A DNA stretch of 49,500 bases from an uncultured Bacilli bacterium. GTDB lineage: Bacteria > Bacillota_I > Bacilli_A > RF39 > UBA660. Position 1 is the first letter of the stretch, and each line of letters begins with the position of its first letter. The stretch is taken from positions 1 to 49,500 of the forward strand of contig CALVOU010000003.1 of assembly GCA_944350365.1 (NCBI GenBank), in the 5' to 3' direction. Shown here piece by piece: positions 761 to 28,876 of this stretch. Under the pieces are notes generated by a model, which was given only the letters and a program-made list of their open reading frames with translations, searched no databases and was not told where the DNA came from. The position numbers were made by a program, and so were the translations under genes.

Positions 761-1384
761 ATGAAAATAAGAGTAAAACCCAAAATTAAACAAGCGATTA
801 AAGCTTCTTTTTTAGATCTTACGCATGTGGAAGAATTTTTCCAATTAGAGTTTTTTAAACAAACATATCCAGAAGGAATGATTGTAACTGATTTTAACGA
901 GTGTATCTTTCATGATATTATTTTTCAAAAACATGACTTAGATAAAATTAGTTTTATGGATGTGATATTTTATCATTGTGATTTTTCTAATATTGAATTT
1001 GTCGATCGTGCATTTTATCGTGTAGAATTTCATGATTGTAAATTAGTAGGTACTAGTTTTTCTAAAGTTCATTTTTTTGATTGCCTATTTGATAACTGTA
1101 ATTTACAATATAGTAATTTTGCGGATTGTATGTGTAAAGTGATTGAATTTCATCACTGTAATTTTTTAGAAGCTAGATTACAAGGAATGAATTTTTCTGG
1201 TGCAGTTTTTGAAGAAGATGATTTGTCAGAAGTAGAAATTTATACCACACCAATGCACGGAATCGATCTTTCTAGTTGTTTAATTGAAGGAATTCGTATC
1301 GAACCTAATTGTTTAAAGGGGATGATTATTTCTCCTTATCAAGCTGTTTTTCTGATTCAAATTTTAGGAATTAAAGTAAAATAG
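761..1384 (+). CDS. pentapeptide-repeat protein, Qnr/MfpA-like (topoisomerase-protection type)
   Basis: The 207-aa product is almost entirely A(D/N)LXX-type pentapeptides (FSNIEFVDRAFYRVEFHDCKLVGTSFSKVHFFDCLFDNCNLQYSNF...). The C-terminal ISPYQAVFLIQILGIKV aligns by eye with the YQASLLMERLGIAV tail of Qnr proteins. Size is in the Qnr range (~210-220 aa). Confidence 0.75.
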   Translation: MKIRVKPKIKQAIKASFLDLTHVEEFFQLEFFKQTYPEGMIVTDFNECIFHDIIFQKHDLDKISFMDVIFYHCDFSNIEFVDRAFYRVEFHDCKLVGTSFSKVHFFDCLFDNCNLQYSNFADCMCKVIEFHHCNFLEARLQGMNFSGAVFEEDDLSEVEIYTTPMHGIDLSSCLIEGIRIEPNCLKGMIISPYQAVFLIQILGIKVK

Positions 1385-1441: not shown

Positions 1442-2047
1442 ATGAAAAAAGTTATGGGTTTATCCATCTTACAATGGATTTTATGTGTTGTTGGGATTTT
1501 GATTTTATCTTCCTTTATTGTACTTCCACCTGTTTTTAGAGCTGTTTTTACGGTTTCTACTGAACCAGGCGAAAATAATCAGCCAGACGTGGAAACTCCA
1601 ACCGATAATGGTTCTTCGACTAGTGATTTGATCGATGATAGTGGGTATGAACGAATTATCTGCACTTATGAGGATGAATCAAATGCCGATTATCGGGATA
1701 GTTTAGGCATTTTATTCTTTCATGAAGATAATCAATTGCGAATTGTTTCTGAAACCGTTAATCGAATTTATCCTCTAGATTCTGAAGATAATGAAGCAAA
1801 ATTTTCGGAAGCTCAACTTGCTTGTCAAGAAATTCCTGCTTCATACCATCAGATCAAAGGGTTTAACTATGAATGTACAACCGGTGGTAATTCTATTTAT
1901 ATTGTAAAAAAATTTGATTTAGCTACTTTCGATCCAACTTCGGTTTCCGCTAGTGATCAAGAAGTGATTACGACCAATTATGCTTTAAATCAAAATGTTT
2001 CAGAGCTTGCTAGTCAATTAGAGTCGGCTGGATATGTTTGTGAATAA
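1442..2047 (+). CDS. membrane-anchored hypothetical protein
   Basis: RBS GGAAAGGGG lies upstream. The N-terminal hydrophobic helix (ILQWILCVVGILILSSFIVL) is followed by an acidic linker and a Cys-containing domain. No family recognised. Confidence 0.55.
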   Translation: MKKVMGLSILQWILCVVGILILSSFIVLPPVFRAVFTVSTEPGENNQPDVETPTDNGSSTSDLIDDSGYERIICTYEDESNADYRDSLGILFFHEDNQLRIVSETVNRIYPLDSEDNEAKFSEAQLACQEIPASYHQIKGFNYECTTGGNSIYIVKKFDLATFDPTSVSASDQEVITTNYALNQNVSELASQLESAGYVCE

Positions 2048-3093
2048 TGAATTTTTAACCGAATTAACACTAATAGGATGAGGATAATGATATTTTCCAT
2101 TAAAAAATAACGGTGGGGAATCGTAAGTAGAGTACCTGCAAATATCAATAATAAGATTAGAAGAGAATAAGAAATGTTCTCTTTTTCTTTTTTTAACGGG
2201 ATAACTTTTTTTATTATCTCGTGTAGACTCCAAAGACTGAAAACAATAATAAAAAGACTGTTTAAGATTTGAGAAAAAGCCAGAGTCGTTTCTAAATGTT
2301 CTAAGATGTTTAAAAATGAAATTTTTTTGTAGACAATCATTTCTGGATAAAGATAAATCTTCGTTAATTGAATTCCAAGAATGGAGATCGTGATTAGTAA
2401 TTCTAAAAAACAAATCAAACTACTATATCTAATCCCTTTAGTAATTGCTTGTTCATATTTCTTTTTTTGACTTAACTCTTCTTTTGGTAACATCGCAATT
2501 AAGAAAAAAGGAATAATTAGACTAGAAAAATAAAGTAAACTGGATTTTGTATTATCTTCAATAGTTGAAGTAAGTAATGGTTTAATGTTTTCTAAGTTTA
2601 GATATTTTAATGTTCCTAAGATCGTGATGATAAAAAGAAATAGATATAGATAAAAACAAATTTCACTTAGTTTAACGATACTGATGATTCCTTTTTTACA
2701 GATATAAAGAATCGTTAATAGTAGAGTAACTGTAATGATAATTAGTTTGGCCTCTTTTAAAATATAATAATTAATAAAAGTAGAAATTTGATGAATAGAG
2801 TAAATTAAATGAGTAAATAAGATGATGATTAGTAGGAAAAAGATTAGAAGCTTAGTTTTAGGAAACAAGATTTCTATTTTTCCTAAAATATCTTGTTTTT
2901 GATGAAACTGATAGATTCCTTTGATCAGTTGAAAGAAAAGAAATAGAAGAAGAAAACCAATTAGGATACTTAGAACACTATCGGTATTATTTTGTTTTGC
3001 TAATCTTTGAATTCCTGTTGTGAAGAGGAAAGAGTTAAAGAGAAAGAAGGTAAGAGTAGTTAATTCAAATGGGGTAATTTTGTTTTTATTCAT
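2014..3093 (-). CDS. spore germination protein, GerxB (amino-acid-permease-like) subunit
   Basis: A 359-aa polytopic membrane protein (~10 hydrophobic segments). It is the last gene of an A-C-B ger operon and its start overlaps the gerC stop by 8 nt. Confidence 0.8.
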   Translation of the reverse strand: MNKNKITPFELTTLTFFLFNSFLFTTGIQRLAKQNNTDSVLSILIGFLLLFLFFQLIKGIYQFHQKQDILGKIEILFPKTKLLIFFLLIIILFTHLIYSIHQISTFINYYILKEAKLIIITVTLLLTILYICKKGIISIVKLSEICFYLYLFLFIITILGTLKYLNLENIKPLLTSTIEDNTKSSLLYFSSLIIPFFLIAMLPKEELSQKKKYEQAITKGIRYSSLICFLELLITISILGIQLTKIYLYPEMIVYKKISFLNILEHLETTLAFSQILNSLFIIVFSLWSLHEIIKKVIPLKKEKENISYSLLILLLIFAGTLLTIPHRYFLMENIIILILLVLIRLKIHYSQTYPADSN

Positions 3094-4069
3094 CAGTAAT
3101 CACCTCTTCTAGATAATTATTTTTAATTGTTGGATGAATTTCGATATGAAACTCTAGTTTACTTAGGATGTCTTTGTTTTTTTTGTAGTAAGAATAGTTA
3201 TTTTGATAGATTTTATGTTCTAGTTTTAATAGATCATATTGTTTTTGCTGGTAGGTAGTAAGTAGGTTTAATAAAGCTTTTTTTAGTTCTTTTTGATAGA
3301 TTTCTGATTGGTCATCAATTGTGGAGTTGATCATAATCTCGATATTATTTTTCTTGCTATTGATGATGGTTTCATTTTCGTAGACAGTGATTCCTTGAAA
3401 AGAAGTTTTTTCGATTTTATTGCTTAGAAAATTGTATAAAATTGCTTCTTCGTTAGATAAACTACCATAGAGTTGATGATCTTTAATGAGAGTAAATCCT
3501 TCTAGAGATAGGGTATCTTCTAGTTTGATGGTAGGAAGAATGGTATTGCGATCGATTAGGATATCTTTTAAAAAGCTTTCAAAATCAATAGATCGAGTAG
3601 TTCCAGATTCTTTTTGATTGATAAGAATGAGTTTATTGATTTCTTCGGCAGTAATTTCTTGATTAAATAAGTCTTCTAAGTTATTTTTGATGGTAACGAT
3701 CTGGAAGTTGTTGCGGTATTCACTGTTTGTTAAGAAGTGTTTAATCATCGTGGTTAATTGTTGATCGATGATGTTTTCGGTAATCACTAATAAATTCATG
3801 TGCGATAGATAGATTTTTTTACTATTTTGAATATAAATATTTTCAAAAGCTTCTTCGAGGGATTTTCCAGTTGCGTGATAGGTTTTATATTTGTCTTTAT
3901 TTTCTTGGTTATCTCTATCTGCGATAATCGTTGTGTAGACAATAAATTTTTCATTTTGATAATCGAGTCCTAACATACTAGTAATTCCTAAATCGCTTAA
4001 TTCTGTATAAGCATTACAACTAGTAGTCAGTAATAGAATAAACACGAGAGTAATAATTTTTTTGATCAT
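3086..4069 (-). CDS. spore germination lipoprotein, Ger(x)C subunit
   Basis: Lipobox LLLTTS-C after an N-terminal signal peptide. Length 327 aa. It lies between the A and B subunits and begins 2 nt after the gerA stop. Confidence 0.8.
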   Translation of the reverse strand: MIKKIITLVFILLLTTSCNAYTELSDLGITSMLGLDYQNEKFIVYTTIIADRDNQENKDKYKTYHATGKSLEEAFENIYIQNSKKIYLSHMNLLVITENIIDQQLTTMIKHFLTNSEYRNNFQIVTIKNNLEDLFNQEITAEEINKLILINQKESGTTRSIDFESFLKDILIDRNTILPTIKLEDTLSLEGFTLIKDHQLYGSLSNEEAILYNFLSNKIEKTSFQGITVYENETIINSKKNNIEIMINSTIDDQSEIYQKELKKALLNLLTTYQQKQYDLLKLEHKIYQNNYSYYKKNKDILSKLEFHIEIHPTIKNNYLEEVITDE

Positions 4070-4070
4070 A

Positions 4071-5495
4071 TTATCGTCCCCTTATTTGATTCTTTTTCGT
4101 GAGTAATGGATTACGTTTTTTTATTGTTTTAGGGTTACTGAGACGGATAAAACTGTCTTTTTGTTCAGAGAAAATAAATGGGGCAAATGGAGCAAGATAG
4201 GGTTTGTTGAAAGCATTGATACTACATAGTTTAGTAGTTAGAAGAATGATGCCTAAAAATATTCCATATATACCTAGTAAAGTAGCTAGAATCATAAAGA
4301 TAATTCGCCACCATCTAATTGCGGCAGTTAGTTCAATTGAGGTAAATACTAATCCGGATATCGCACTGATCGCTACGACGATAATCATAATCGGCGAGAT
4401 AATTCCCGCGCTAACAGCAGCATCTCCTAATACTAAACCACCTAGGATAGAGACTGCGGTTCCCATAGTAGAAGCCATTCGCATATCACTTTCTCTTAGT
4501 ATTTCAAAAGAAATGGTCATGAGTAGTGCTTCTACCAAAGCTGGAAAAGGAACGGTTTTTCGTTGCGCAAGGAAATTAACGAGTAGATCAGTCGTGATGG
4601 AGTCATAATTATGAGTAGTAATCGCAATATAGTAAGCGGGGATTAAAATCGCAATGAAAAAGGCAATTAATCGTACTAAGCGAATGAATGTAATATTAAT
4701 TGGTTTTTGATAATAATCATCGGGAGTATGAAAAAAATCAATAAAGAAACAGGGAAGAATCAAGGCATAGGGACTGTTGTCGATCATGACAATGATCTTT
4801 CCTTCTAGTAGAGCCATACCCGCTAAATCTGGCCTCTCCGTTGTCATAATGGTTGGAAAAATCGCCGATTCTTGATTGAGATATTGTTTTAGATAACTAC
4901 TATCGATGATGCCATCTATATTGATTTTATTTAATTTTTTTTCAATTTCCGTAACTAATTTTTTTTCGGCAATATTCTGTATATAAAGGATACCTACTTT
5001 GGTTTGGGTTTGTTTTCCAATCATGAGTGTTGAAGTCCAAAGATTACTCGTTTTTAATCGTTTTCGTAATAATCCTAAATTAGTATTAAAGTTTTCTGTA
5101 AAGGCATCTTTTGGTCCACGAATAGACACTTCTGCTTCCGCTTTGCCTATTCCTCGATCAAGGGAAGCTCTAATCTCCATTCCAAAACAACTATCATCTG
5201 GTAAGATAAAGATGACATATCCGTTCCATAACTTGGTTTGTAAGTCAGTATAGTCTTCAATTTTTTTGATATTGTGACTAGGTAATGAATTATAAAAGAA
5301 AGTGTAAAGATCAGTAGTAATCGTTATCTTTTCGTCGATAATTTTTGTTAGATTTTTTAATACGAATTCGCTAACATTTGCGCCACTTGTTAGTACTTCG
5401 CTGTAAACTAGTGTGATTTTTTGTTCTTGAATAGTGATGGTTCGATAAATAATATCATCAGCATTATTGGTATCTATTTGTAAACGTGTAATCAT
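4071..5495 (-). CDS. spore germination protein, GerxA subunit
   Basis: 474 aa with GerA-family blocks (RGPKDAFTENFNTNLGLLRKRL, TTERPD, LLEGKIIVMIDNSPYALILP, FEILRES..R) and a C-terminal membrane domain. RBS GAGAGGGAA precedes the ATG. Confidence 0.9.
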   Translation of the reverse strand: MITRLQIDTNNADDIIYRTITIQEQKITLVYSEVLTSGANVSEFVLKNLTKIIDEKITITTDLYTFFYNSLPSHNIKKIEDYTDLQTKLWNGYVIFILPDDSCFGMEIRASLDRGIGKAEAEVSIRGPKDAFTENFNTNLGLLRKRLKTSNLWTSTLMIGKQTQTKVGILYIQNIAEKKLVTEIEKKLNKINIDGIIDSSYLKQYLNQESAIFPTIMTTERPDLAGMALLEGKIIVMIDNSPYALILPCFFIDFFHTPDDYYQKPINITFIRLVRLIAFFIAILIPAYYIAITTHNYDSITTDLLVNFLAQRKTVPFPALVEALLMTISFEILRESDMRMASTMGTAVSILGGLVLGDAAVSAGIISPIMIIVVAISAISGLVFTSIELTAAIRWWRIIFMILATLLGIYGIFLGIILLTTKLCSINAFNKPYLAPFAPFIFSEQKDSFIRLSNPKTIKKRNPLLTKKNQIRGR

Positions 5496-7195: not shown

Positions 7196-7915
7196 ATGGA
7201 TCAAGAAAAAGTTGGACAATTAATTAAAGAGCTAAGAATAAAACACCATTTAACGCAAGCAGAATTTGCTAAACGTTACCATGTTACTTATCAAGCAGTA
7301 TCGAAATGGGAAAATGGAAAAAATATGCCTGATTTAGCGCTCTTAAAACAGATTTGTGCTGATTTTCAAATGGATATCGGTGATTTTCTTGATGGCGAAA
7401 TTACAGTAAAGGAATCTCCCAAACAAAAAAAATCCAAGAAAGTAAAGATAGGAATTGGGGTAATTGGAATTTTTGTTTTTTCCTTGCTTATTGGAGGATA
7501 TTTTTTCTTTTTTCAAAACGATGATTTTGAGTTTAAAACGTTATCTACTAGTTGTAGTCATTTTACGATATCGGGTAGTTTAGCTTATAATCGAAGTAAC
7601 TCTCATTTATATATTTCTAATATTGATTATTGTGGTGGCGAAGATAGTACGTTATATCAAGAAATCAGTTGTGTCTTATACGAAGTTCAAGAGGATAGTA
7701 CGACGAAAATTTCTGAAGCGAAATATGAAGGTGAAGAGATGATTACGTTAGAAGAATATCTTCGTGGGATTGATTTTAAAATCGATGATTTTTCTAGCGA
7801 CTGTTCTCGTTATTCGGAAGGAAGTTTATATTTAGAAATTAATGCTTCTAATTCTTTAGAAAAAACAACTACTTATCGCATTCCATTATCGTTTAATGAT
7901 CGTTGTACGAAGTAA
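7196..7915 (+). CDS. membrane-bound XRE-family HTH transcriptional regulator
   Basis: ATG at 7196 follows RBS AGGTGG. The N-terminal part carries an HTH_3 motif (LTQAEFAKRYHVTYQAVSKWENGKNMP). It is followed by a Lys-rich linker, one TM helix (IGIGVIGIFVFSLLIGGYFFFF) and a Cys-containing extracytoplasmic domain. Confidence 0.8.
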   Translation: MDQEKVGQLIKELRIKHHLTQAEFAKRYHVTYQAVSKWENGKNMPDLALLKQICADFQMDIGDFLDGEITVKESPKQKKSKKVKIGIGVIGIFVFSLLIGGYFFFFQNDDFEFKTLSTSCSHFTISGSLAYNRSNSHLYISNIDYCGGEDSTLYQEISCVLYEVQEDSTTKISEAKYEGEEMITLEEYLRGIDFKIDDFSSDCSRYSEGSLYLEINASNSLEKTTTYRIPLSFNDRCTK

Positions 7916-7939
7916 CTCAACTTATGCTTGAGTTTTTTT
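7914..7939 (+). terminator. rho-independent terminator after the XRE gene
   Basis: AACTCAA (7914-20), 7-nt loop, TTGAGTT (7928-34), then a T-run to 7939. Confidence 0.6.
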
Positions 7940-7953
7940 CAACTTCTTGTTTA

Positions 7954-7983
7954 TTGCTTTTTTTGATAGTTTTTTTTTATAAT
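7954..7983 (+). promoter_or_regulatory. candidate sigma-A promoter of the arylsulfotransferase-family gene
   Basis: TTGCTT (7954-59), 18-nt spacer, TATAAT (7978-83). Confidence 0.4.
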
Positions 7984-8004
7984 GGAGTTGTTAGGAGGTT
8001 AAAC

Positions 8005-9984
8005 ATGAAAAAAAAGAAACAAAGAAAAAGATGGGTTTTGGTTGTTATTATCCTTGCGATTATTTTAGTGATTAGTGGCGGAATTATGCTCTATGCTCAC
8101 TTACATTCGATCAATCATCAAGAAGTTGCTTATGTAGAGAGTATGGTAGAAAAGCAACAACACTTAGAAGAAGACTTTGATTTAGATGGATTTACGATAG
8201 ATAACGTTAAGGTAATTTTAAATCCTTACGGAAATTCTCCGCTTACGGCATTGATTGCGTTTGATACAGAAGAAGAAGTTGAAGTCAAAGTAACGATTCC
8301 AGGAAAAGATGAATCAACGACTTATACGCATACTTTTGATCAAACTAAAGAACATCGTTTACCAATCTATGGCCTCTATGCTGGTACGGTAAATCAAGTA
8401 AAAGTAGAATATGAAGAAGAGGAAAAATTAGTTTCTAAAACGATTGAGATTGAAACTGAAGCGTTACCTGATGATATGATTATTCCAGAAGATGTTTATG
8501 CAGACAAAGAGAAATTAGGTAATGAGCTTTATTTTTATACCCCATCTAGTTCAGGATATACATGTGCTTATGATGTAAACGGAGATGTTAGATGGTATTT
8601 TACGAATTATGCTCTTTGGAAGATTGATCGCCTAGAGAATGGTCATCTCTTAGTTAGTACTGAACGACTTGTCAATTCGCCATATTATATGACAGGATTA
8701 TACGAGATGGATTTATTAGGTAAAATTTATACGGAGTATAGTCTAGAAGGTGGCTACCATCACGATTATTATGAGATGCCTAATGGTAATTTGTTAGTCG
8801 CTAGTGATGATTTTAATAATGATGATGGTACGGTTGAAGATTATATTGTCGAACTTGACCGGAAAACAGGAGAAGAAGTTAAACATTTTGATTTGAAAGA
8901 TATTTTACCAATGGAAGATGGAAAAAGTGAAAACTGGTCTTCTTACGATTGGTTCCATAATAACTCAGTATGGTACGATGAAGCTACTAACTCTATTACC
9001 TTATCCGGAAGACATCAAGATGCGGTAATTAATATCGATTATGAAACTGGTGAATTAAACTGGATTATTGGAGATCCTACGAATTGGAGCGAGGAATATC
9101 AGAAATATTTCTTTACCCCAGTAGGAGATGATTTTGAATGGCAGTGGAGTCAGCATGCAGCGATGATTACGCCAGAAGGATATGTATTTATCTTAGATAA
9201 CGGGAATAATAAATCAAAAATTAAAGACGAATATGTACCAGCTGATGAGAGTTACACTAGAGGAGTCATGTATAAGATTGATACTGATAAGATGACAATC
9301 GAACAAGTATGGGAGTATGGGAAAGAACGTGGTAGTGAATTCTATTCCCCTTATATTTCTGATGTTGATTATTTAGGAGAAAATCATTATATTGTTCATT
9401 CTGGTGGGATAGTCTATGTGGATGGTAAAAATTCTAATCAGCCAGCTGGATTTAGTGAAGGAGCTGAATTATTGTCAGACACCGTAGAGGTAATTGATGA
9501 TGAAGTGGTTTTTGAACTAAAGTTACCAACCAACAATTACCGAGTAGAAAAGATGAGTCTATATACTGATCAAGATGAATTTTCTGTCGAAAAGGCAAAA
9601 CGTTTAGGTAGTTTAGGGAAAACAGAAGTTACTCGTAGTGAGATAGGCGCTATTCTGTCTAGTCGAAAGATAGATGACACTTATCAAAACCATGATGTTA
9701 CGTTTGAACAGGAATTTGATCGCTTAGTTGTCAAAGGACAATTTAAACGGGAAAACGAAGTAGAAGTTGTCCTTTATCAGAATTTACAGTCTAATATTTA
9801 TCAAGTTCGCGTCAGTAAGAAACCATATACGGCGTTATGTGTAGATATCTTTACCGAAGAAGAAACAGAGAATGGAATTTCTATTACGAAATATATTAAT
9901 GCGGAAGGATTAAGTGGTAAATATTCTATTTATCTTAGAATCGATGGCGTTTTATACGATACAGGAGAATATGTAGAATTTTAG
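8005..9984 (+). CDS. arylsulfotransferase (ASST) family protein, membrane-anchored
   Basis: ATG at 8005 follows RBS AGGAGG (7994-99). An N-terminal anchor (WVLVVIILAIILVISGGIMLY) is followed by an ASST N-domain-like block (LNPYGNSPLTALIAFDTEEEVEVKVTIPGK). Propeller blocks follow (GGYHHDYYEMPNGNLLV, WFHNNSVWYDE, SGRHQDAVINIDYETGELNWIIGDP, WSQHAAMITPEG). Confidence 0.7.
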   Translation: MKKKKQRKRWVLVVIILAIILVISGGIMLYAHLHSINHQEVAYVESMVEKQQHLEEDFDLDGFTIDNVKVILNPYGNSPLTALIAFDTEEEVEVKVTIPGKDESTTYTHTFDQTKEHRLPIYGLYAGTVNQVKVEYEEEEKLVSKTIEIETEALPDDMIIPEDVYADKEKLGNELYFYTPSSSGYTCAYDVNGDVRWYFTNYALWKIDRLENGHLLVSTERLVNSPYYMTGLYEMDLLGKIYTEYSLEGGYHHDYYEMPNGNLLVASDDFNNDDGTVEDYIVELDRKTGEEVKHFDLKDILPMEDGKSENWSSYDWFHNNSVWYDEATNSITLSGRHQDAVINIDYETGELNWIIGDPTNWSEEYQKYFFTPVGDDFEWQWSQHAAMITPEGYVFILDNGNNKSKIKDEYVPADESYTRGVMYKIDTDKMTIEQVWEYGKERGSEFYSPYISDVDYLGENHYIVHSGGIVYVDGKNSNQPAGFSEGAELLSDTVEVIDDEVVFELKLPTNNYRVEKMSLYTDQDEFSVEKAKRLGSLGKTEVTRSEIGAILSSRKIDDTYQNHDVTFEQEFDRLVVKGQFKRENEVEVVLYQNLQSNIYQVRVSKKPYTALCVDIFTEEETENGISITKYINAEGLSGKYSIYLRIDGVLYDTGEYVEF

Positions 9985-12164: not shown

Positions 12165-14015
12165 ATGTTAGAAGAAATTAAGAAACATACGGAATATGAT
12201 GTTGCGATTACGAAACAAGATCACTTTGGTGATGGAATTACCAAAATCGGGGACAAGCTTGTTTTTGTTAAACACGGTTTATCTGGGGATCAATGTCGTA
12301 TTGTGATTACTAATGTGAAGAAGACTTTTGCGGTAGCGAAAATTGAAAAGATGTTTCAACCTTCTTCGGAGAGAGTAAAGCCTATTTGTCCTCATTATGA
12401 AGGATGTGGTGGTTGTAGTTTAATGCATCAAGCCGAGGAGAAACAACTTTCTTTCAAAGAAAACAAAGTGCGTGAACTTTTTTCTCGTTTTGCGGGTATT
12501 TCTGATTTTGAAATAGAAAGTATCTCTCATGGTCAGCTTACTCATTATCGAAATAAAGTTGTGTTTCATGGGTTAAATGGGGAACTGGGTTTCTATCAAG
12601 AAAAAAGTCGTGATTTAACCCCAATTCAACAGTGTTTATTGGTCGATGAAGAAATCGATCAAGTTTATCAACGAATGCGAGATTATCTGATGACTTATCC
12701 AGATGAAGAAGTATTGGAAGTCATGATTCGTAAGACTAGTTTGAAAGAATTAATGTTGGCAGTAAAGGGAAAAGTTAATTCTGAACACTTGTGTTCTTTT
12801 TTTCAAGATTTTCCTTTAGCTTCCCTTCTTTTAAATGGTGAAGTTATATCTGGTAAGCGTTATATTACAGAAAAAATTTTTGATTTCCAATTTCGTATTT
12901 TATCAGAAGCCTTTTTTCAAGTGAATTATGACATGATGCTTAACTTGTACCAGAAAGTAATCAATTATTATCGGGATAAGCACTATCGTAAAGTTTTAGA
13001 TTTATATTCAGGAACTGGGACGATTGGATTATTACTTACGCCGTATGTGGAAGAAGTAGTTGGGATTGAAGTTGTTAAAGATGCTGTCTTGGCGGCTAAA
13101 ATGAATCAAGAGATCAATCAGGTAAAAAATATTTCTTTTATTCATGGAAAAGTAGAAGATTATATTGATGAGTTTGAACAGATCGATTCTTTAGTTGTCG
13201 ATCCACCACGTAGTGGATTAGATAGTAAGACAATCGCAACGATTCTTAAAATTTCACCAGATAGTATGGTTTATATTTCTTGTGATCCTGTCACTTTAGC
13301 ACGGGATTTAAAGAGTTTACTTTCTAATTATCAACTTTCTCATGTTCATTTAGTCGATATGTTTCCCAATACTTATCATATCGAAACTGTTGTGATTTTA
13401 GAAAAAAGAAGAGATTCTCTTTTTGATCATTATGATGTTTTAGTGAATCGCCTTCATCCTTATCAAGCAGAAGATTATCTGGGAATAGAAATGGTAAAAA
13501 CAAAGGATATCAACGGTCAGGATGTTTATGTAGAAAAAGAAACGTATGAGCATTATTTACTTTTTCGCACCAAATTACAAGAATTAGGAATTCAAGTTTC
13601 CATCTCTAGTGGTTATCGAACGCTTGCTGAACAACAACAAATTATCGATGAGTTTTATTCTCGATATCCTGAAGAGAAAGTAGCTCAGAAAGTCGCTCCT
13701 GTTGGAACGAGTGAACATCACACGGGACTTGCCTTAGATATTACTGTACGGACTCAGGACGATTATTTATCTAATCAATTAGATAGTGAAAAACAAAAAG
13801 AATATGGAGAACAATATCAAATTATGGAAACGCTTTGTGCAGATTATGGATTTATTTTACGTTATCCTAAAGATAAGGAAGAGGTGACAGGGGTAAATTA
13901 TGAACCTTGGCATTTTCGTTATGTGGGATATCCGCTTTCTAGAAAAATTATGAGTCAAAAGCTCACATTAGAAGAATATTTAGAAGAAAATTATATAATG
14001 GAGGAAATAAAATGA
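12165..14015 (+). CDS. fusion protein: RumA/TrmA-family RNA (uracil-5)-methyltransferase (aa 1-416) + VanY/VanXY-type M15B D,D-peptidase domain (aa 417-616)
   Basis: N-terminal part: TRAM-like region, 4-Cys cluster (C..CPHYEGCGGCSLMH), SAM motif LDLYSGTGTIGL, DPPRSG, catalytic SCDP, and the family's usual C-terminal MFPNTYHIETVVILEKR. C-terminal part: LVNRLHP, SGYRTLAEQ, SEHHTGLALDI and EPWHFRYVG, which are the M15B zinc and catalytic motifs. The frame is continuous with no internal stop. Confidence 0.8.
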   Translation: MLEEIKKHTEYDVAITKQDHFGDGITKIGDKLVFVKHGLSGDQCRIVITNVKKTFAVAKIEKMFQPSSERVKPICPHYEGCGGCSLMHQAEEKQLSFKENKVRELFSRFAGISDFEIESISHGQLTHYRNKVVFHGLNGELGFYQEKSRDLTPIQQCLLVDEEIDQVYQRMRDYLMTYPDEEVLEVMIRKTSLKELMLAVKGKVNSEHLCSFFQDFPLASLLLNGEVISGKRYITEKIFDFQFRILSEAFFQVNYDMMLNLYQKVINYYRDKHYRKVLDLYSGTGTIGLLLTPYVEEVVGIEVVKDAVLAAKMNQEINQVKNISFIHGKVEDYIDEFEQIDSLVVDPPRSGLDSKTIATILKISPDSMVYISCDPVTLARDLKSLLSNYQLSHVHLVDMFPNTYHIETVVILEKRRDSLFDHYDVLVNRLHPYQAEDYLGIEMVKTKDINGQDVYVEKETYEHYLLFRTKLQELGIQVSISSGYRTLAEQQQIIDEFYSRYPEEKVAQKVAPVGTSEHHTGLALDITVRTQDDYLSNQLDSEKQKEYGEQYQIMETLCADYGFILRYPKDKEEVTGVNYEPWHFRYVGYPLSRKIMSQKLTLEEYLEENYIMEEIK

Positions 14016-14590
14016 AAAAAATAGGTTTAATGTTCGTTATTGTATTAGTTGGTGTTTTTATGGTAACGGGATGTGGAAAAACAGAATATTTAACGGGAAA
14101 GATCAATGTAGAAATAGAAGTAAAAGATTATGGAACGATTGCGGTAGAGCTCGATGCGGATGAAGCACCGATTACGGTGACAAATTTTGTTGATTTAGTA
14201 GAAGAAGGATTCTATGATGGGTTAACTTTTCATCGAATTATTGATGGCTTTATGATCCAAGGTGGAGACCCTAATGGTGATGGTAGTGGCGGTAGTAGCC
14301 GAACGATTAAGGGAGAATTCTCTTCTAATGGAGTAGATAATTCGATCGATCACGTAAGAGGAGTAATTTCGATGGCTCGTTCTAGTTTGCCTAACAGTGC
14401 TTCTAGTCAATTTTTTATTGTTCAAGAAGATAGCCCACATTTAAATGGTGAGTATGCTGCGTTTGGTCATGTAACGAGTGGAATGGAAATAGTTGACGCA
14501 ATTTGTGAAGATGTTCAAGTTGAAGATACAAATGGTACTGTCCTTCCTGAAAATCAACCAGTCATTACGTCTATTAAAGTTGTAGAGTAA
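14012..14590 (+). CDS. cyclophilin-type peptidyl-prolyl cis-trans isomerase, lipoprotein
   Basis: Lipobox VTG-C, FHRIIDGFMIQGGDP and SMARS...NSASSQFFI. The start overlaps the upstream stop (ATGA). Confidence 0.9.
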   Translation: MKKIGLMFVIVLVGVFMVTGCGKTEYLTGKINVEIEVKDYGTIAVELDADEAPITVTNFVDLVEEGFYDGLTFHRIIDGFMIQGGDPNGDGSGGSSRTIKGEFSSNGVDNSIDHVRGVISMARSSLPNSASSQFFIVQEDSPHLNGEYAAFGHVTSGMEIVDAICEDVQVEDTNGTVLPENQPVITSIKVVE

Positions 14591-15090
14591 TGGAAAGGGA
14601 AGTTGTAACGCATACTTTTCCGCCCTTTTTTGATGAAAACTCAAAAATATTGATTTTAGGAAGTATTCCTTCTGTTGTATCGAGAGAAGAGGGGTTTTAT
14701 TATATGCACCCCTCCAATCGATTTTGGAAAGTATTGGCTACTTTATATGAAGAAGAAGTTCCTGAGACTATTTCGTTAAAAAAGAAATTTTTAACTCGTC
14801 ACCAAATTGCTTTGTGGGATGTGATTGCTTCCTGTCGGATTCATGCTTCTAGTGATGCCTCTATTACTGATGTTCAAGTAAATGACATTTCATCACTATT
14901 AGCGAAAACCAAAGTCAAACGTATTTTTGTGACAGGGAAACGTGCTTATGAATTATATCAGAGGTATCTTTACCCAGTCGTGAAGAAAGAGGCTATTTTG
15001 CTTCCTTCTCCTAGTTCAGCCAATGCGAGTTGTTCATTCGATTATTTAGTTCAAGCATATTCTATTCTTAGAGAGGAGAATGTTTCATGA
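14590..15090 (+). CDS. DNA-deoxyinosine glycosylase (uracil-DNA glycosylase superfamily)
   Basis: ILILGSIPS..S, FYYMHPSNRFW and LPSPSSAN are the blocks I associate with the hypoxanthine-DNA glycosylase branch of the UDG superfamily. TAATG overlap with the PPIase stop. Confidence 0.65.
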   Translation: MEREVVTHTFPPFFDENSKILILGSIPSVVSREEGFYYMHPSNRFWKVLATLYEEEVPETISLKKKFLTRHQIALWDVIASCRIHASSDASITDVQVNDISSLLAKTKVKRIFVTGKRAYELYQRYLYPVVKKEAILLPSPSSANASCSFDYLVQAYSILREENVS

Positions 15091-15935
15091 TGGTTTTATC
15101 AGTTCAACAAGAGATGAAATTACTTGATTTCTTGTCTACTCATACAAATTATTCGAAAAAAAAGATTAAAAGTTTATTTAAGTTTCATGCGATTACTTTA
15201 GAAAATGGCAAAGTACTTAACTTTGATGATATGGTGAAAAAAGGAGAAAAGATCGTTATTTCTACTGAAAAGAAAGAAACAAAGATTGGTAACATTGATA
15301 TTGTCTATGAAGATGATTATTATTTGGTTGTCGATAAGCCATGTGGAATGCTTACTGTTTCTACTGATAAAGAGCGAAATCGAACTTTATATCACTTTGT
15401 ACGAGAGTATGCGAATAATAAGAATAAAAAAGAGAAGATTTTTATTGTTCACCGACTTGATCGAGAAACTTCAGGATTAGTTTTGTTTGTCAAGGACGAG
15501 AAATTGAAACAAAAGTTACAAGAAGATTGGGAGAATGTGGCACTTACTAGGGAGTATACAGCGGTAGCTAGTGGTATTTTAGAACCTAAAGAGGGTCGCT
15601 TAGTTCATTACTTAAAAGAAAATAGACAACATAAGGTATATGTTAGTCCTACTAATGATAATGGAAAAAAGGCAATTACCAATTACCAAGTTCTTTCTGA
15701 AGATAAAAATAGTTTACTAAGTCTTTCCTTGATGACTGGTCGTAAAAATCAGATTCGTGTTCAATTATCTTATCTTGGTCATCCTTTAATTGGAGATAGT
15801 AAATACGGAGGATGTAAAGCCAAACGTTTATATTTACATGCTAATAAATTGGTTATTTATGATCCAATTACTAAGAAAAAAATTACTTTTATTTCTAAAG
15901 TTCCTAAAGATTTTAAACAAATGCTTTCTATTTAA
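15087..15935 (+). CDS. RluA-family pseudouridine synthase
   Basis: S4-like N-terminus, catalytic HRLDRETSGLVLF, and GRKNQIRVQL. ATGA overlap with the upstream gene. Genes 12165-15935 look like one operon. Confidence 0.85.
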   Translation: MMVLSVQQEMKLLDFLSTHTNYSKKKIKSLFKFHAITLENGKVLNFDDMVKKGEKIVISTEKKETKIGNIDIVYEDDYYLVVDKPCGMLTVSTDKERNRTLYHFVREYANNKNKKEKIFIVHRLDRETSGLVLFVKDEKLKQKLQEDWENVALTREYTAVASGILEPKEGRLVHYLKENRQHKVYVSPTNDNGKKAITNYQVLSEDKNSLLSLSLMTGRKNQIRVQLSYLGHPLIGDSKYGGCKAKRLYLHANKLVIYDPITKKKITFISKVPKDFKQMLSI

Positions 15936-25640: not shown

Positions 25641-26108
25641 ATGCGTCGAAGAAATCAAAAAGCATTATTTTTCTTTTTAGCGATTCCCCTTGGTTTAGGA
25701 TTTCTGATCGGTTTTTTGTCACAACCTACAGCTTCTTATGAAGCGTTAGTTAAACCTTTTTTTGCGCCACCTGGTTTTGTTTTCCCGATTGTTTGGACAA
25801 TTCTTTATCTTTTGATGGGAATTTCTAGTTATCTGATTGCGCAAAGCAACAACCCTAGACGTTATCCAGCTTTAATTACGTATATGGAACAATTATTCGT
25901 TAACTTGGCTTGGTCGCCAATTTTCTTTACATTGAATTTTCGTTTTCTTGCGTTCTTATGGATTTTATTTTTGATTTATCTAGTAGTGAAGATGATCGTT
26001 CAATTTAAACGGGTTTCTCATCGGGCGGCTTATTTACAGATTCCTTATCTTTTGTGGTTAATATTTGCTGCTTTGTTGAATTTTTCGATTGTGATTTTAA
26101 ATCTTTAA
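25641..26108 (+). CDS. tspO: TspO/MBR family tryptophan-rich sensory protein
   Basis: ATG at 25641 follows RBS AGGAGG (25626-31). Five TM helices with PPGFVFPIVWTILYLLMG and NLAWSPIFF blocks. Confidence 0.85.
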   Translation: MRRRNQKALFFFLAIPLGLGFLIGFLSQPTASYEALVKPFFAPPGFVFPIVWTILYLLMGISSYLIAQSNNPRRYPALITYMEQLFVNLAWSPIFFTLNFRFLAFLWILFLIYLVVKMIVQFKRVSHRAAYLQIPYLLWLIFAALLNFSIVILNL

Positions 26109-26962
26109 TCTTGTAGCTTGAAGGTCCAAAGATTTTTGATTTGAGGAGCAAGGGTATCATAGCTCCAAAGCTTATTACTTCTTTCTTTACTGTTTGAGTC
26201 GCGGATAATAAATTTTCCATCTTTAATTCCTACGATAGAGATAAAATGTCCAGTCGTGGTAAAATCACCTGGTTTCATACTAGTGATAATGGGATGATTC
26301 TGTTTTAACTCTTTGGTCATATTACTTTTGGATAATGTGATTTGTTTTCCTATAATTCCGTATTCATTAACGCCTTCTGTCATTAGTGACCAACTTGTTC
26401 CAATTCCCTCTACATAATAGCCTTTTTCTTCAGCAAGTGAAGCTACTTTTGAAGGGGTTACATCATTTCTTCCGGTTAGACCAGCTACTATGATGGATAT
26501 CGCAGTAGGGCCACAGCCATTTATCGCTATGACACTATTTCCATAACTAGCATATCCCCATCTAGTATCGTATTGGAGGAGAAGGGGATAGGTGCCTTTT
26601 TTTATGCCTTCTAACTCTGTTGTATAAACGTTTCCTTTCTTTTCTGGATAGCCAAGCATATAGTCAATCATATCGATATTTCTTCCTAACATTTCTAATA
26701 AAATATCTGGATATTCTTCTTTATTTTCGATAATCGTTAGTATTCGTTCATCTTCTAAGGATAAAGGGTAGAGATTATCGATTAGTGGATCACCAGTTTG
26801 CGGAAAGACTTCTTCATGAATCGTTGATATGGTTTCTTCTTGAACGGGGTTGGTATTTTCAGATAATAAATATGTTGAAATTCCAAAGTAACTTCCATAA
26901 CACACTACAACTAAAAGTAAAATTCTTTTTAATGCACTTTTCTTTTTCTTCTTTTTTGCCAT
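26105..26962 (-). CDS. membrane-anchored C39-like (papain-fold) cysteine peptidase domain protein
   Basis: N-terminal anchor. NGCGPTAISIIVAGL carries the nucleophile Cys. TTTGHFISIVG...IIRDSN carries the His/Asp. The layout is Peptidase_C39_2-like. RBS AAAGGAGAA. Confidence 0.6.
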   Translation of the reverse strand: MAKKKKKKSALKRILLLVVVCYGSYFGISTYLLSENTNPVQEETISTIHEEVFPQTGDPLIDNLYPLSLEDERILTIIENKEEYPDILLEMLGRNIDMIDYMLGYPEKKGNVYTTELEGIKKGTYPLLLQYDTRWGYASYGNSVIAINGCGPTAISIIVAGLTGRNDVTPSKVASLAEEKGYYVEGIGTSWSLMTEGVNEYGIIGKQITLSKSNMTKELKQNHPIITSMKPGDFTTTGHFISIVGIKDGKFIIRDSNSKERSNKLWSYDTLAPQIKNLWTFKLQD

Positions 26963-27018
26963 TTTGTTCTCCTTTAGAAATAATCATTTTATAGGATTAT
27001 TGTAGTCGTTATTTTCTT

Positions 27019-27064
27019 TTTATACTTTGAAAAATTCCTAGGAAAGTCTTAAGTTTTTCTTAAT
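27019..27064 (-). promoter_or_regulatory. candidate response-regulator box plus -10 upstream of the C39-like gene
   Basis: The minus strand reads ATTAAGA-AAAA-CTTAAGA. This is a direct repeat with 11-bp period (plus-strand 27058-64 and 27047-53). A 22-nt gap and then TATAAA (27019-24) follow. The same architecture is found upstream of the regulator gene (28877-28921). Confidence 0.35.
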
Positions 27065-28172
27065 TTTCTTCTAATGGTAGAATAATTTGAAAAGTTGTTT
27101 TGTCTTTATTACTTGTAACTATTATTTTTCCGTCATGAAGCTCGACGATTTCTTTAGCTATGGCGAGACCTAATCCACTTCCTCCAGTTTTTGTTGTTCT
27201 AGAAGAGTCGAGACGATAGAACTTTTCGAATATTTTATTTAATTTTTCTTCAGGGATTTGTTTTCCATAGTTTTCAATAAAAATTTCTGCAGTTGTTTCT
27301 TTTTTGACTAGTGTTATCGTAATGGTACTGTTTTCACTACTGTAGTAAAGAGCGTTTTTGATTACGTTATTGAAGACTCGGGCGAGTCGATCAGAATCTG
27401 CATATAACATGATTTTTTCTGTCGCATTTAATACAATCTTTTTATTCAATTCGATCAAGGTAGGATAGAAATCATCGATGATTTGGTCAAACATCAAATT
27501 TAGATTGATCATTTCTTTTTCAAGAATAATCTTTTCAGAATTAAATCTAGTAATATCGAATAGTTCATTGGTTAATTCTTCTAGTTTATAGGCTTTATCT
27601 AAGGCAATTTGGATATATTTTTCTCGCTGTTTTTTAGGCATATCGTTAATTTCATCCAAAAGAGATAAGTAACCAATCATCGAAGTTAATGGTGTTTTGA
27701 TATCGTGGGCTAGATAGACGACGAGTTCATCTTTTCGTTGTTCATTTTCTTTGGCTAGTCGTTCATTTTTTTCTGCTTCTCGTTTTACATGATTTAATTT
27801 TTTCTCTAGATATTCTAATCCTTCTGGTAAAGAAATATATTCACTATTTTTATCGAATAGGGAATCTATTCCTTCCGCAAGAAAATCGATATCTGTAAAT
27901 GTTTTTTTAAATTTATGATGAAAGACAAGAAGAAATCCAATAAACCAAATAGATAAAAGAATAAGAAGATAGATCACGTTATCATTATATAGATTTTGTC
28001 CTAGGGTTCGTAAAAAATAATATAGGTCAGGAGAATAACGATATAACCAATCGAAATCCAGGTATTTTAAAACAGTACCCGCAATTAGAATTAAGACAGT
28101 AAATAAAATGGTGTAGATACAAAGACGAATTAAAAAGCGATGATATGGATTTTTTCTTTTTTTATTTTTCAA
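27060..28172 (-). CDS. VanS-like sensor histidine kinase
   Basis: Two N-terminal TM helices. The H-box YLAHDIKTPLTSMIGYLSLLDE, plus DKAYKLEEL, RLARVFNNVIKNALYYS, FEKFYRLDSSR and GGSGLGLAIAKEIV, are collinear with VanS of VanA-type clusters as I remember it. Identity was not computed. Confidence 0.85.
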   Translation of the reverse strand: MKNKKRKNPYHRFLIRLCIYTILFTVLILIAGTVLKYLDFDWLYRYSPDLYYFLRTLGQNLYNDNVIYLLILLSIWFIGFLLVFHHKFKKTFTDIDFLAEGIDSLFDKNSEYISLPEGLEYLEKKLNHVKREAEKNERLAKENEQRKDELVVYLAHDIKTPLTSMIGYLSLLDEINDMPKKQREKYIQIALDKAYKLEELTNELFDITRFNSEKIILEKEMINLNLMFDQIIDDFYPTLIELNKKIVLNATEKIMLYADSDRLARVFNNVIKNALYYSSENSTITITLVKKETTAEIFIENYGKQIPEEKLNKIFEKFYRLDSSRTTKTGGSGLGLAIAKEIVELHDGKIIVTSNKDKTTFQIILPLEEN

Positions 28173-28851
28173 TTTTATATCCTACTCCCCAAACGGTTTT
28201 AATATATTTTGGTTGTTTACCGTTATCTTTCATTTTTTCTCTTAGATGTCTAATATGTACCATGACGGTATTGTTGTCTTTTTCAAAATATTTTTCTTTC
28301 CATATCATCAGAAATAAATCTTCGCTTTTTATTACTTTTCCCCGATTTTCACATAATATCCAAAGAATAGAAAATTCAGTTTTGGTTAGATTTAGTTTTT
28401 TCTCATTTAATTTACATTCATAAGTATCTTTATCGATCACTAATCCTCTAAATTCAATTCGATTTTGATGATGATTAGAAGAATTATATTTTTGGTATCG
28501 TCGTAATTGTGCTTTTACTCTAGCGACTAATTCTAGTGGTTGGAATGGTTTAGTAACATAGTCATCTCCACCGATAGTAAGGCCATCTATCTTATCGATA
28601 TCTTCTACTTTAGCGGTCACGAAGATAATCGGAAAGTTATAGGTTTCTCGAATTTTCTTACATAGCGAAAAACCGTCTATTTCTGGCATCATGACATCTA
28701 ATATCGCAAGATCAATTGTGAGATGATCGATGTCTTCTAGTAGCTTTTTACTAGAATAATATTTATAGACGGTAAAGTTTTCATTTTTTAGATAGATTTC
28801 TATTAAATCAGCAATTTCTTGTTCATCGTCGACGATAAGTATATTAGCCAT
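28162..28851 (-). CDS. VanR-like OmpR-family response regulator
   Basis: ILIVDDEQEIADLIEIYLKNENFTVYKYY, DLAILDVMMP, GGDDYVTKPF, VARVKAQLRRY and the C-terminal KYIKTVWGVGYKIEK closely follow VanR. An alternative ATG is at 28860. An 11-nt overlap with the kinase gene suggests translational coupling. Confidence 0.9.
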   Translation of the reverse strand: MANILIVDDEQEIADLIEIYLKNENFTVYKYYSSKKLLEDIDHLTIDLAILDVMMPEIDGFSLCKKIRETYNFPIIFVTAKVEDIDKIDGLTIGGDDYVTKPFQPLELVARVKAQLRRYQKYNSSNHHQNRIEFRGLVIDKDTYECKLNEKKLNLTKTEFSILWILCENRGKVIKSEDLFLMIWKEKYFEKDNNTVMVHIRHLREKMKDNGKQPKYIKTVWGVGYKIEK

Positions 28852-28876
28852 AATGATCATTCTTTCCTTTTTGTTT

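Follow-up and report, generated by a model that had tools for sequence, protein, structure and literature searches.

The closest described relatives of the gene reported here belong to two well-known protein families, and it is their combination that seems to be new. RlmCD of Streptococcus pneumoniae (SP_1029, PDB 5xj1) and RumA/RlmD of Escherichia coli (1uwv) consist of a TRAM domain, a central domain and an S-adenosylmethionine (SAM)-dependent methyltransferase domain, and carry catalytic Cys and Glu motifs. VanXYc and VanXYg (4mur, 4f78) are peptidases of about 190 residues which have no membrane anchor and show the motifs SxHxxGxAxD, ExxH and YR. All of these features are found together in a single gene at 12165..14015 on the plus strand of the window, by which we mean the whole stretch of 49,500 nucleotides that was analysed (contig CALVOU010000003.1, from a genome of an uncultured chicken-gut Bacilli bacterium that is 95.8% complete and assembled in 80 contigs).

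The N-terminal part of the encoded protein matches RlmCD with 187.8 bits and RumA with 135.2 bits; the SCN and HVET motifs of 5xj1 align, and the Cys cluster resembles that of the E. coli enzyme. Unlike both enzymes, the protein continues past the normal C-terminus with a peptidase domain of 200 residues. The best PDB match of this domain is VanXYc (domain residues 10-191 aligned, 100.7 bits, E 8.5e-28), from which, as from VanXYg, it differs in being fused to an RNA enzyme and in lying outside a van operon, with no alternative ligase in its genome. The M15B fold and the Zn motif are also shared with LdcB/YodJ (4ox3, 4ox5; 91.5 bits for YodJ of Bacillus subtilis). However, LdcB enzymes are presented in passages of PMC4087270 as extracellular, anchored proteins that act on cell-wall tetrapeptides, whereas the fused peptidase has neither signal nor anchor. 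In sister genera, a peptidase of the same anchor-less family (43-49% identity) is joined by a very short linker to TruB. These proteins differ from the RumA fusion in that the peptidase is N-terminal, the partner is a tRNA pseudouridine-55 synthase and the peptidase belongs to a separate clade. A precedent for a nutritional or recycling role outside resistance is E. coli DdpX, a VanX homologue that scavenges D-Ala-D-Ala; it differs in belonging to another M15 subfamily (VanX type), in being unfused and in being regulated by starvation. Nothing relevant on VanY with methyltransferase/TRAM or VanY with TruB architectures was found in the limited collection of full-text literature that was searched. 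The combination of TRAM, U5-methyltransferase and VanY seems to be undescribed, as do the far commoner one of VanY with TruB and the single one of C26 with VanY.

A preliminary description of this DNA had interpreted the gene as an uninterrupted open reading frame (ORF) of 616 codons, with a complete RumA/RlmCD-type methyltransferase in residues 1-416, a complete M15B domain without anchor in residues 417-616 and an A-rich run at the junction. The analysis bears this out on every point. The gene is one open frame of 616 codons from an ATG start to a TGA stop, with the following features.

12165..14015, plus strand: fusion gene for a RumA/RlmCD-type 5-methyluridine (m5U) RNA methyltransferase and a VanXY-like M15B peptidase, as defined by the ORF, its domains and the architecture of relatives

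12189..12341, plus strand: TRAM domain, residues 9-59 (Pfam PF01938, 27.6 bits, cut-off 21)

12387..12635, plus strand: Cys cluster C75, C81, C84 and C157, putative 4Fe-4S site, invariant in 18 of 18 fused proteins

12882..13409, plus strand: SAM-dependent U5-methyltransferase catalytic domain, residues 240-415 (Pfam PF05958, tRNA_U5-meth_tr, 100.2 bits)

13401..13425, plus strand: junction, residues about 413-420 (...LEKRRDSLF...), where the frame continues with no stop and no in-frame ATG

13413..14012, plus strand: anchor-less VanXY-like M15B peptidase domain, residues 417-616 (Pfam VanY, NCBIfam vanXY, PDB 4mur)

The methyltransferase half belongs to the family of NCBIfam model rumA (TIGR00479), which covers residues 1-415 with 288.6 bits, above its cut-off of 183.55. 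By analogy with E. coli RumA we take C75, C81, C84 and C157 to hold a Fe-S cluster; C373 (in ISCDP) and E407 (in HIET) are presumably the catalytic nucleophile and the general base known from the RumA literature. Together with DPPR at 346-349, these residues are invariant in the alignment of all 18 fused proteins, and R485 of the peptidase half is nearly so. This second half matches VanY (PF02557) at residues 455-588 with 109.9 bits against a gathering threshold of 25, which accounts for profile positions 3-131 of 132. The equivalog model vanXY (NF000380) aligns residues 426-607 with its positions 4-177 of 179 and scores 125.7 bits, below the cut-off of 250, and the LdcB model (NF041194) gives 66.7 bits against a cut-off of 275, so that the protein is not assigned to LdcB. 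The peptidase motifs are SGYRT at 482, SEHHTGLALD at 516 and EPWHFRYVG at 580. The active site is complete, as R485, the Zn ligands H518, D525 and H583 and the catalytic E580 align with those of VanXYc (4mur). The ligands and E580 are retained in 13 of the 18 fused proteins and altered in P0021 and in four proteins with a dead active site, which are discussed below. A 19-residue Kyte-Doolittle scan detected no hydrophobic segment in residues 417-616; the highest mean in the whole protein (1.36, residue 286) lies in the SAM-binding region. The only other VanY-family protein of the genome starts with a lipoprotein-type signal and reaches 152 bits on the LdcB model. With VanXYc as best PDB match, intact Zn and catalytic residues and no anchor, the peptidase does appear to be VanXY-like and cytoplasmic, as had been proposed. 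Both halves look functional as far as their residues can tell, and the predicted product is a single polypeptide of about 71 kDa with two enzymatic modules. In an AlphaFold2 model of the whole protein (18-row alignment; mean predicted local distance difference test score, pLDDT, 86.6; predicted template modelling score, pTM, 0.62), the domains are confidently folded while their mutual arrangement is not settled. A complex prediction of residues 1-416 with 417-616 scored 0.00 and was not used as evidence either way.

The preliminary description had offered two explanations, a genuine fusion or a frameshift or assembly artefact. An artefact, in which an indel in the A-run joins two separate genes, would fit the position of the junction within the A-rich run GAAAAAAGAAGAG at 13401-13413 and the fragmented assembly. 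The stretch is present in 20 listed runs from 10 studies of chicken-gut and related metagenomes, and contigs of three other studies span the junction without a gap (X3 record 9, 13.4 kb with 1 difference and 0 gaps; X5 record 19, 12504-13871, 0 gaps; X7 record 24, 13050-13799, 0 gaps). The alignments list no indel around 13401-13413. In the X10 pieces listed, coverage is missing at 13367-13427, and one X10 contig skips 13159-13353. Among the 40 other genomes searched, G024, G002 and G017 have in-frame matches of at least 600 residues with no internal stop (50-53% identity), and G009 matches with 68% identity over 601 residues that include one TGA. We read this TGA as the earlier stop of the fused gene itself, the likely product being P0002 with 603 aa. 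The same architecture is found in 18 of the 120 best protein clusters (the window's own included), which have 603-617 aa and contain both PF02557 and PF05958. These clusters were drawn from NCBI, ENA, Logan and JGI, and the 17 others are 48-69% identical to the window protein. In all fused forms the junction is at the same residue, and the codons differ; G017, for example, reads GAG AAA ACG CAG AAA CGA, which is no homopolymer. As the junction is spelled differently among species, the continuity of the frame does not depend on the homopolymer. There is also no in-frame ATG at or just past the junction of the window, so that the peptidase can be made only as part of the fusion in this organism. 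An artefact is, on this evidence, barely credible: the fusion is genuine and conserved, in four further species of the genus as well as in the 17 other clusters. A protein-atlas search yielded plain RlmD clusters only (score 0.85), the fused architecture being absent from its large clusters.

Purifying selection acts on both halves. When the window is compared with G009, dN/dS (the ratio of non-synonymous to synonymous divergence) amounts to 0.18 in the peptidase half (dS 0.57) and to 0.23 in the RumA half, and the ratio of peptidase to RumA identity is about 1 across fused pairs. In the same comparison with G009, dS is 0.57 in the peptidase half and 1.09 in the RumA half, with protein identities of 83% and 63%. 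Possible reasons for this contrast are recombination within the gene or differing constraints.

The genus is represented by 29 species genomes, and the state of the two genes varies widely among them. Five have the in-frame fusion (G000, which is the genome of the window, G009, G024, G002 and G017). In G010, rumA and the peptidase gene are separate and lie in the same frame (...LERK-TGA-AAG-GAA-ATG-F...), the ATG being two codons past the TGA. Its fused relative G024 reads, in the same register, ...LERK-AGA-AAG-GGA-ACA-F..., so that a single substitution makes the difference between two genes and one. G022 and G044 carry an intact peptidase ORF behind a remnant of the rumA tail; foreign DNA has been inserted and a replacement rumA tail lies beyond it, and among the genes inserted there or lying nearby are a DUF1016 fragment and an ISAzo13-type transposase. 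Foreign tails are also found at the end of several close rumA clusters (78-93% identity). In G018 and G005 the peptidase exists as a standalone copy. In the nearest species, G042, the rumA part of which is 95% identical, rumA has a short new tail and only a decayed remnant of the peptidase 3′ end is left, with a deletion of about 360-400 nt, a 7-nt deletion and stops. For the other 18 genomes (completeness 53-95%), the search at E <= 1e-35 gave no peptidase copy. An intact copy is therefore absent in 19 of the 29 species.

In a tree of the peptidase domain, all 27 copies from the genus (17 fused and 10 split or standalone) fall into one clade with 99% support in the Shimodaira-Hasegawa-like approximate likelihood ratio test (SH-aLRT), which stands apart from the TruB-fused and other standalone forms. 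In the tree of the rumA core, the fused forms fall into two well-separated groups and at least 7 state changes are forced, although the count of fusion/split changes is an upper estimate, as some "standalone" clusters of 195-223 aa may be fusions cut by a contig end. This indicates one old association with rumA which was followed by many splits and losses. The fusion is thus old and evolutionarily unstable across the genus.

Change is concentrated at the 3′ end of rumA in this genus (G022, G044, G008, G018 and G042). We encountered swapped C-terminal tails, inserted accessory genes (the ISAzo13-type transposase, the DUF1016 fragment, RhuM and DUF5131) and one clean decay of the domain downstream; the stretches examined at these loci showed no integrase gene. 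For streptococci, passages of PMC4701971 describe integrative and conjugative elements with a serine integrase that integrate in rumA and exchange its 3′ part. The replaced tails and accessory genes suggest that, in the present genus, DNA was integrated at the 3′ end of rumA by a site-specific recombinase. Two candidates were dropped. One, a match to residues 417-451 downstream of rumA in G005, runs into unrelated DNA; the other, a VanY gene that precedes rumA in G025 (from another family) and was considered as a parallel, is of the membrane-anchored type.

Within the fused proteins there is one subclade in which the peptidase has lost its active site. It comprises P0011, P0017, P0022 and P0023 (G002 and G017 are included) and has 97% local support in the rumA-core tree and 100% SH-aLRT support in the domain tree. 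Its members have SEFHTGLxxE (SDFH in P0017) in place of SEHHTGLALD, and NNRH, KKDQ, QPHQ or HPNV in place of EPWH. All four proteins show Phe for the first Zn-binding His and Glu for the Zn-binding Asp and lack the catalytic Glu; three also lack the last Zn ligand. The domains are still 50-73% identical to each other, compared to 63-74% for the RumA halves, which gives an identity ratio of 0.83; the largest active group has 0.99. For the pair G002 and G017, non-synonymous differences reach a proportion of 0.29 in the domain and 0.23 in RumA, synonymous divergence being saturated. None of six dead-site sequences has a stop in the domain. The same loss of residues was not seen in any of 226 relatives with other architectures (120 short, 76 TruB-fused and 30 other long proteins). 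A pseudo-peptidase that is retained only in the fused context is the single observation that could point to new biology.

When the domain was searched alone, many anchor-less proteins of 180-220 aa were obtained, some of which are named "M15 family metallopeptidase" and come from metagenome-assembled genomes of Bacilli/Tenericutes. A match to the VanY family at E <= 1e-40 occurs in 98 of 121 genomes, one for each of 120 other genera of the bacterial family plus that of the window. The 29 best loci, each from another genus, were annotated; the context categories overlap, with L131 and L140 counted twice. In nine loci the gene is located directly behind a PcrA/UvrD helicase gene, often with LigA next, and in two between PolA and Fpg. 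A fusion to TruB is found in six. One locus has a fusion of a C26 peptidase with VanY (421 aa), and in another a C26 gene is adjacent. In one (G330), the peptidase gene lies directly upstream, at a distance of 4 nt, of a gene for TRAM and U5-methyltransferase; single loci adjoin an RsuA-type pseudouridine synthase and a PP-loop (TilS-like) gene, and the contexts of the others are mixed. The family is a cytoplasmic one that is widespread among gut Bacilli with small genomes (0.5-1.8 Mb), where its genes are found in tightly packed housekeeping operons. At least three fusions with neighbours have taken place, two of them with RNA uridine-modifying enzymes, the linkers to which are only about 4-5 residues long.

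The fusions to TruB amount to 76 listed clusters of 463-472 aa, 63 of which have exactly 465 aa, with the peptidase first and a complete TruB behind it. The catalytic motifs are intact in all 76. Within a class-wide sample of 200 genomes, the full VanXY-TruB form was found in just one genus, which is from the same family. Among the listed proteins (G316, G252, G277, G248, G288 and G297; P0256-P0346) lengths of up to 476 aa occur, and at one locus RbfA is encoded upstream; rbfA-truB is the normal operon arrangement. In G250 (L131:781-2043), Peptidase_C26, a gamma-glutamyl-type hydrolase, is N-terminal to the VanXY-like domain, and in G245 a C26 gene lies upstream of a standalone peptidase gene. 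The partnership with C26 hints at a shared role in peptide degradation.

Downstream of the fusion gene, the operon is tightly packed.

14012..14590, plus strand: lipoprotein cyclophilin-type peptidyl-prolyl isomerase (PPIase), the start of which overlaps the TGA stop of the fusion gene as ATGA

14590-15935, plus strand: DNA-deoxyinosine glycosylase, followed by an RluA-family pseudouridine synthase

The order PPIase, glycosylase, RluA is kept downstream of rumA in relatives whether the peptidase is present or not. A scan for promoters and terminators was no richer than shuffled sequences (21 versus 17.8 sites; 1 versus 1.8 terminator-like sites). Elsewhere in the window, a spore-germination receptor operon (2014-5495, minus strand) encodes a GerXA-like protein, a Ger(x)C-like protein and a germination permease; the operon makes it probable that this gut bacterium, small as its genome is, forms spores. 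A Qnr/MfpA-like pentapeptide-repeat protein of 207 aa (761-1384, plus strand) scores 55 bits, far under the Qnr cut-off of 240, and a large arylsulfotransferase (ASST) protein with an Ig-like N-domain (7903-9984, plus strand) scores 339.6 bits.

With respect to function, the RumA half is the only PF05958 gene of the genome and no TrmFO was found in it above cut-off. The methyltransferase could target U747/U1939 of the 23S rRNA, U54 of tRNA, or both. The peptidase is most likely a cytoplasmic enzyme that removes C-terminal D-Ala from D-Ala-D-Ala or from imported or recycled stem peptides. C26 as a partner in two genera would fit such an activity, as would the lack of a signal sequence.

The likeness to VanXY raises the question of vancomycin resistance, in which the peptidase would deplete precursors that end in D-Ala-D-Ala under control of a VanR/VanS-like system, as in VanC/E/G/L/N clusters. 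It is consistent with this that VanXY and VanXYc are the best NCBIfam and PDB matches of the domain, and that a VanR-like regulator (375.6 bits, cut-off 350) and a VanS-like kinase (343 bits, cut-off 400) are encoded in the same window, at 27063-28860 on the minus strand. The preliminary description had pointed out this pair, correctly placed about 13 kb away, and had hinted at a link to glycopeptide resistance, which is not supported. The pair is on the opposite strand and separated from the fusion gene by those for PPIase, glycosylase, RluA, a P-type ATPase, an ABC transporter and others. It is followed by a C39-like protein (Peptidase_C39_2; 26108-28860, minus strand, together with the pair), and no van ligase, VanH, VanX or VanT-type gene was seen beside it. 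The domain misses the vanXY cut-off by half. The only Ddl-family gene of the genome is of the ordinary type, with 311 bits to the D-Ala-D-Ala ligase subfamily, above cut-off, and it adjoins murF. Van ligase models reach only 126-207 bits against cut-offs of 495-775, so no Van-type ligase is found in this 95.8%-complete genome. The Ddl (G000:C15, L023:1375-2601) is unusually long with 408 aa and lies directly after the murF-like gene. Furthermore, the surroundings of the fusion gene are different in G024, G002 and G017. As there is no Van-type ligase and the two-component pair is unlinked, a role in vancomycin resistance is very improbable, and we regard it as already largely refuted.

It seems fairly probable to us that the gene encodes a bifunctional protein which arose by stop-codon loss between neighbouring housekeeping genes in a compact operon. 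In the ancestor of this genus of uncultured gut Bacilli with small genomes, the peptidase gene would have been located directly downstream of rumA in a dense housekeeping operon, and loss of the stop codon between them would have merged the two into one frame. We propose this origin because G010 still has a stop and a start at exactly this position. The N-terminal module would act as a RumA/RlmCD-type SAM-dependent RNA uridine-C5 methyltransferase, the C-terminal one as a cytoplasmic, anchor-less Zn peptidase of type M15B with a housekeeping or scavenging role rather than one in resistance. The peptidase probably does not need the methyltransferase for its activity, given that standalone cytoplasmic proteins of 180-200 aa occur across the bacterial family. 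Several points weigh against this explanation. The partners are twice RNA uridine-modifying enzymes (RumA and TruB), which argues against complete independence of the two activities, and retention of the dead-site domain under constraint argues that it may have a value other than catalysis within the fusion; this retention is the chief finding that speaks against the halves being simply independent. As the vanXY cut-off was missed, the substrate of the peptidase is uncertain, and in the PDB YodJ/LdcB is nearly as close as VanXYc (91.5 versus 100.7 bits). A free cytoplasmic hydrolase of D-Ala-D-Ala would oppose the sole Ddl, so that the true substrate or its control may differ. Finally, the coverage of the junction consists of assembled contigs and not of raw reads.

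A rival explanation is that of a coupled fusion. Here the peptidase fold would help the RNA enzyme, be it in a structural or regulatory capacity or by recruiting substrates, and catalysis by the peptidase would be of secondary importance or even dispensable. The Zn ligands and the catalytic Glu are gone in 4 of the 18 RumA-fused proteins while the domain is conserved, and this is without parallel among the relatives of other architectures. The TruB fusions in 6 of 29 sampled genera, the neighbourhood in G330 and the very short linkers point in the same direction. With one m5U methyltransferase and no TrmFO above cut-off, one may even speculate that the target is tRNA U54, beside the U55 of TruB. 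On the other hand, the nearest species has dropped the domain and kept rumA, 19 of the 29 species do without an intact copy, and in G010, G018 and G005 the peptidase has a gene of its own. Most family members are standalone and lie beside unrelated genes (PcrA, LigA, PolA/Fpg, EzrA, SpoIVB), and the pTM of the whole fusion protein is low. We therefore consider a coupled fusion rather unlikely. We regard it as quite unlikely that RNA uridine-modifying enzymes more generally (RumA here, TruB in sister genera) have taken up the anchor-less VanXY-like fold as a partner module. If true, the domain would serve the RNA enzyme, or would tie the status of cell-wall precursors to RNA modification, and would not be a mere passenger.

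Having arisen by stop-codon loss, as we favour, or otherwise, the fusion has a bearing on annotation, as a "VanXY-like" call in gut Bacilli need not mean glycopeptide resistance. Moreover, a single genus provides a natural series, in which the two parts occur as genes of their own, as a pair parted by a stop, fused, fused with a dead active site, fused but split by inserted DNA, and with the peptidase reduced to a remnant by deletion. With such a series the costs and benefits of gene fusion in reduced genomes can be put to the test.

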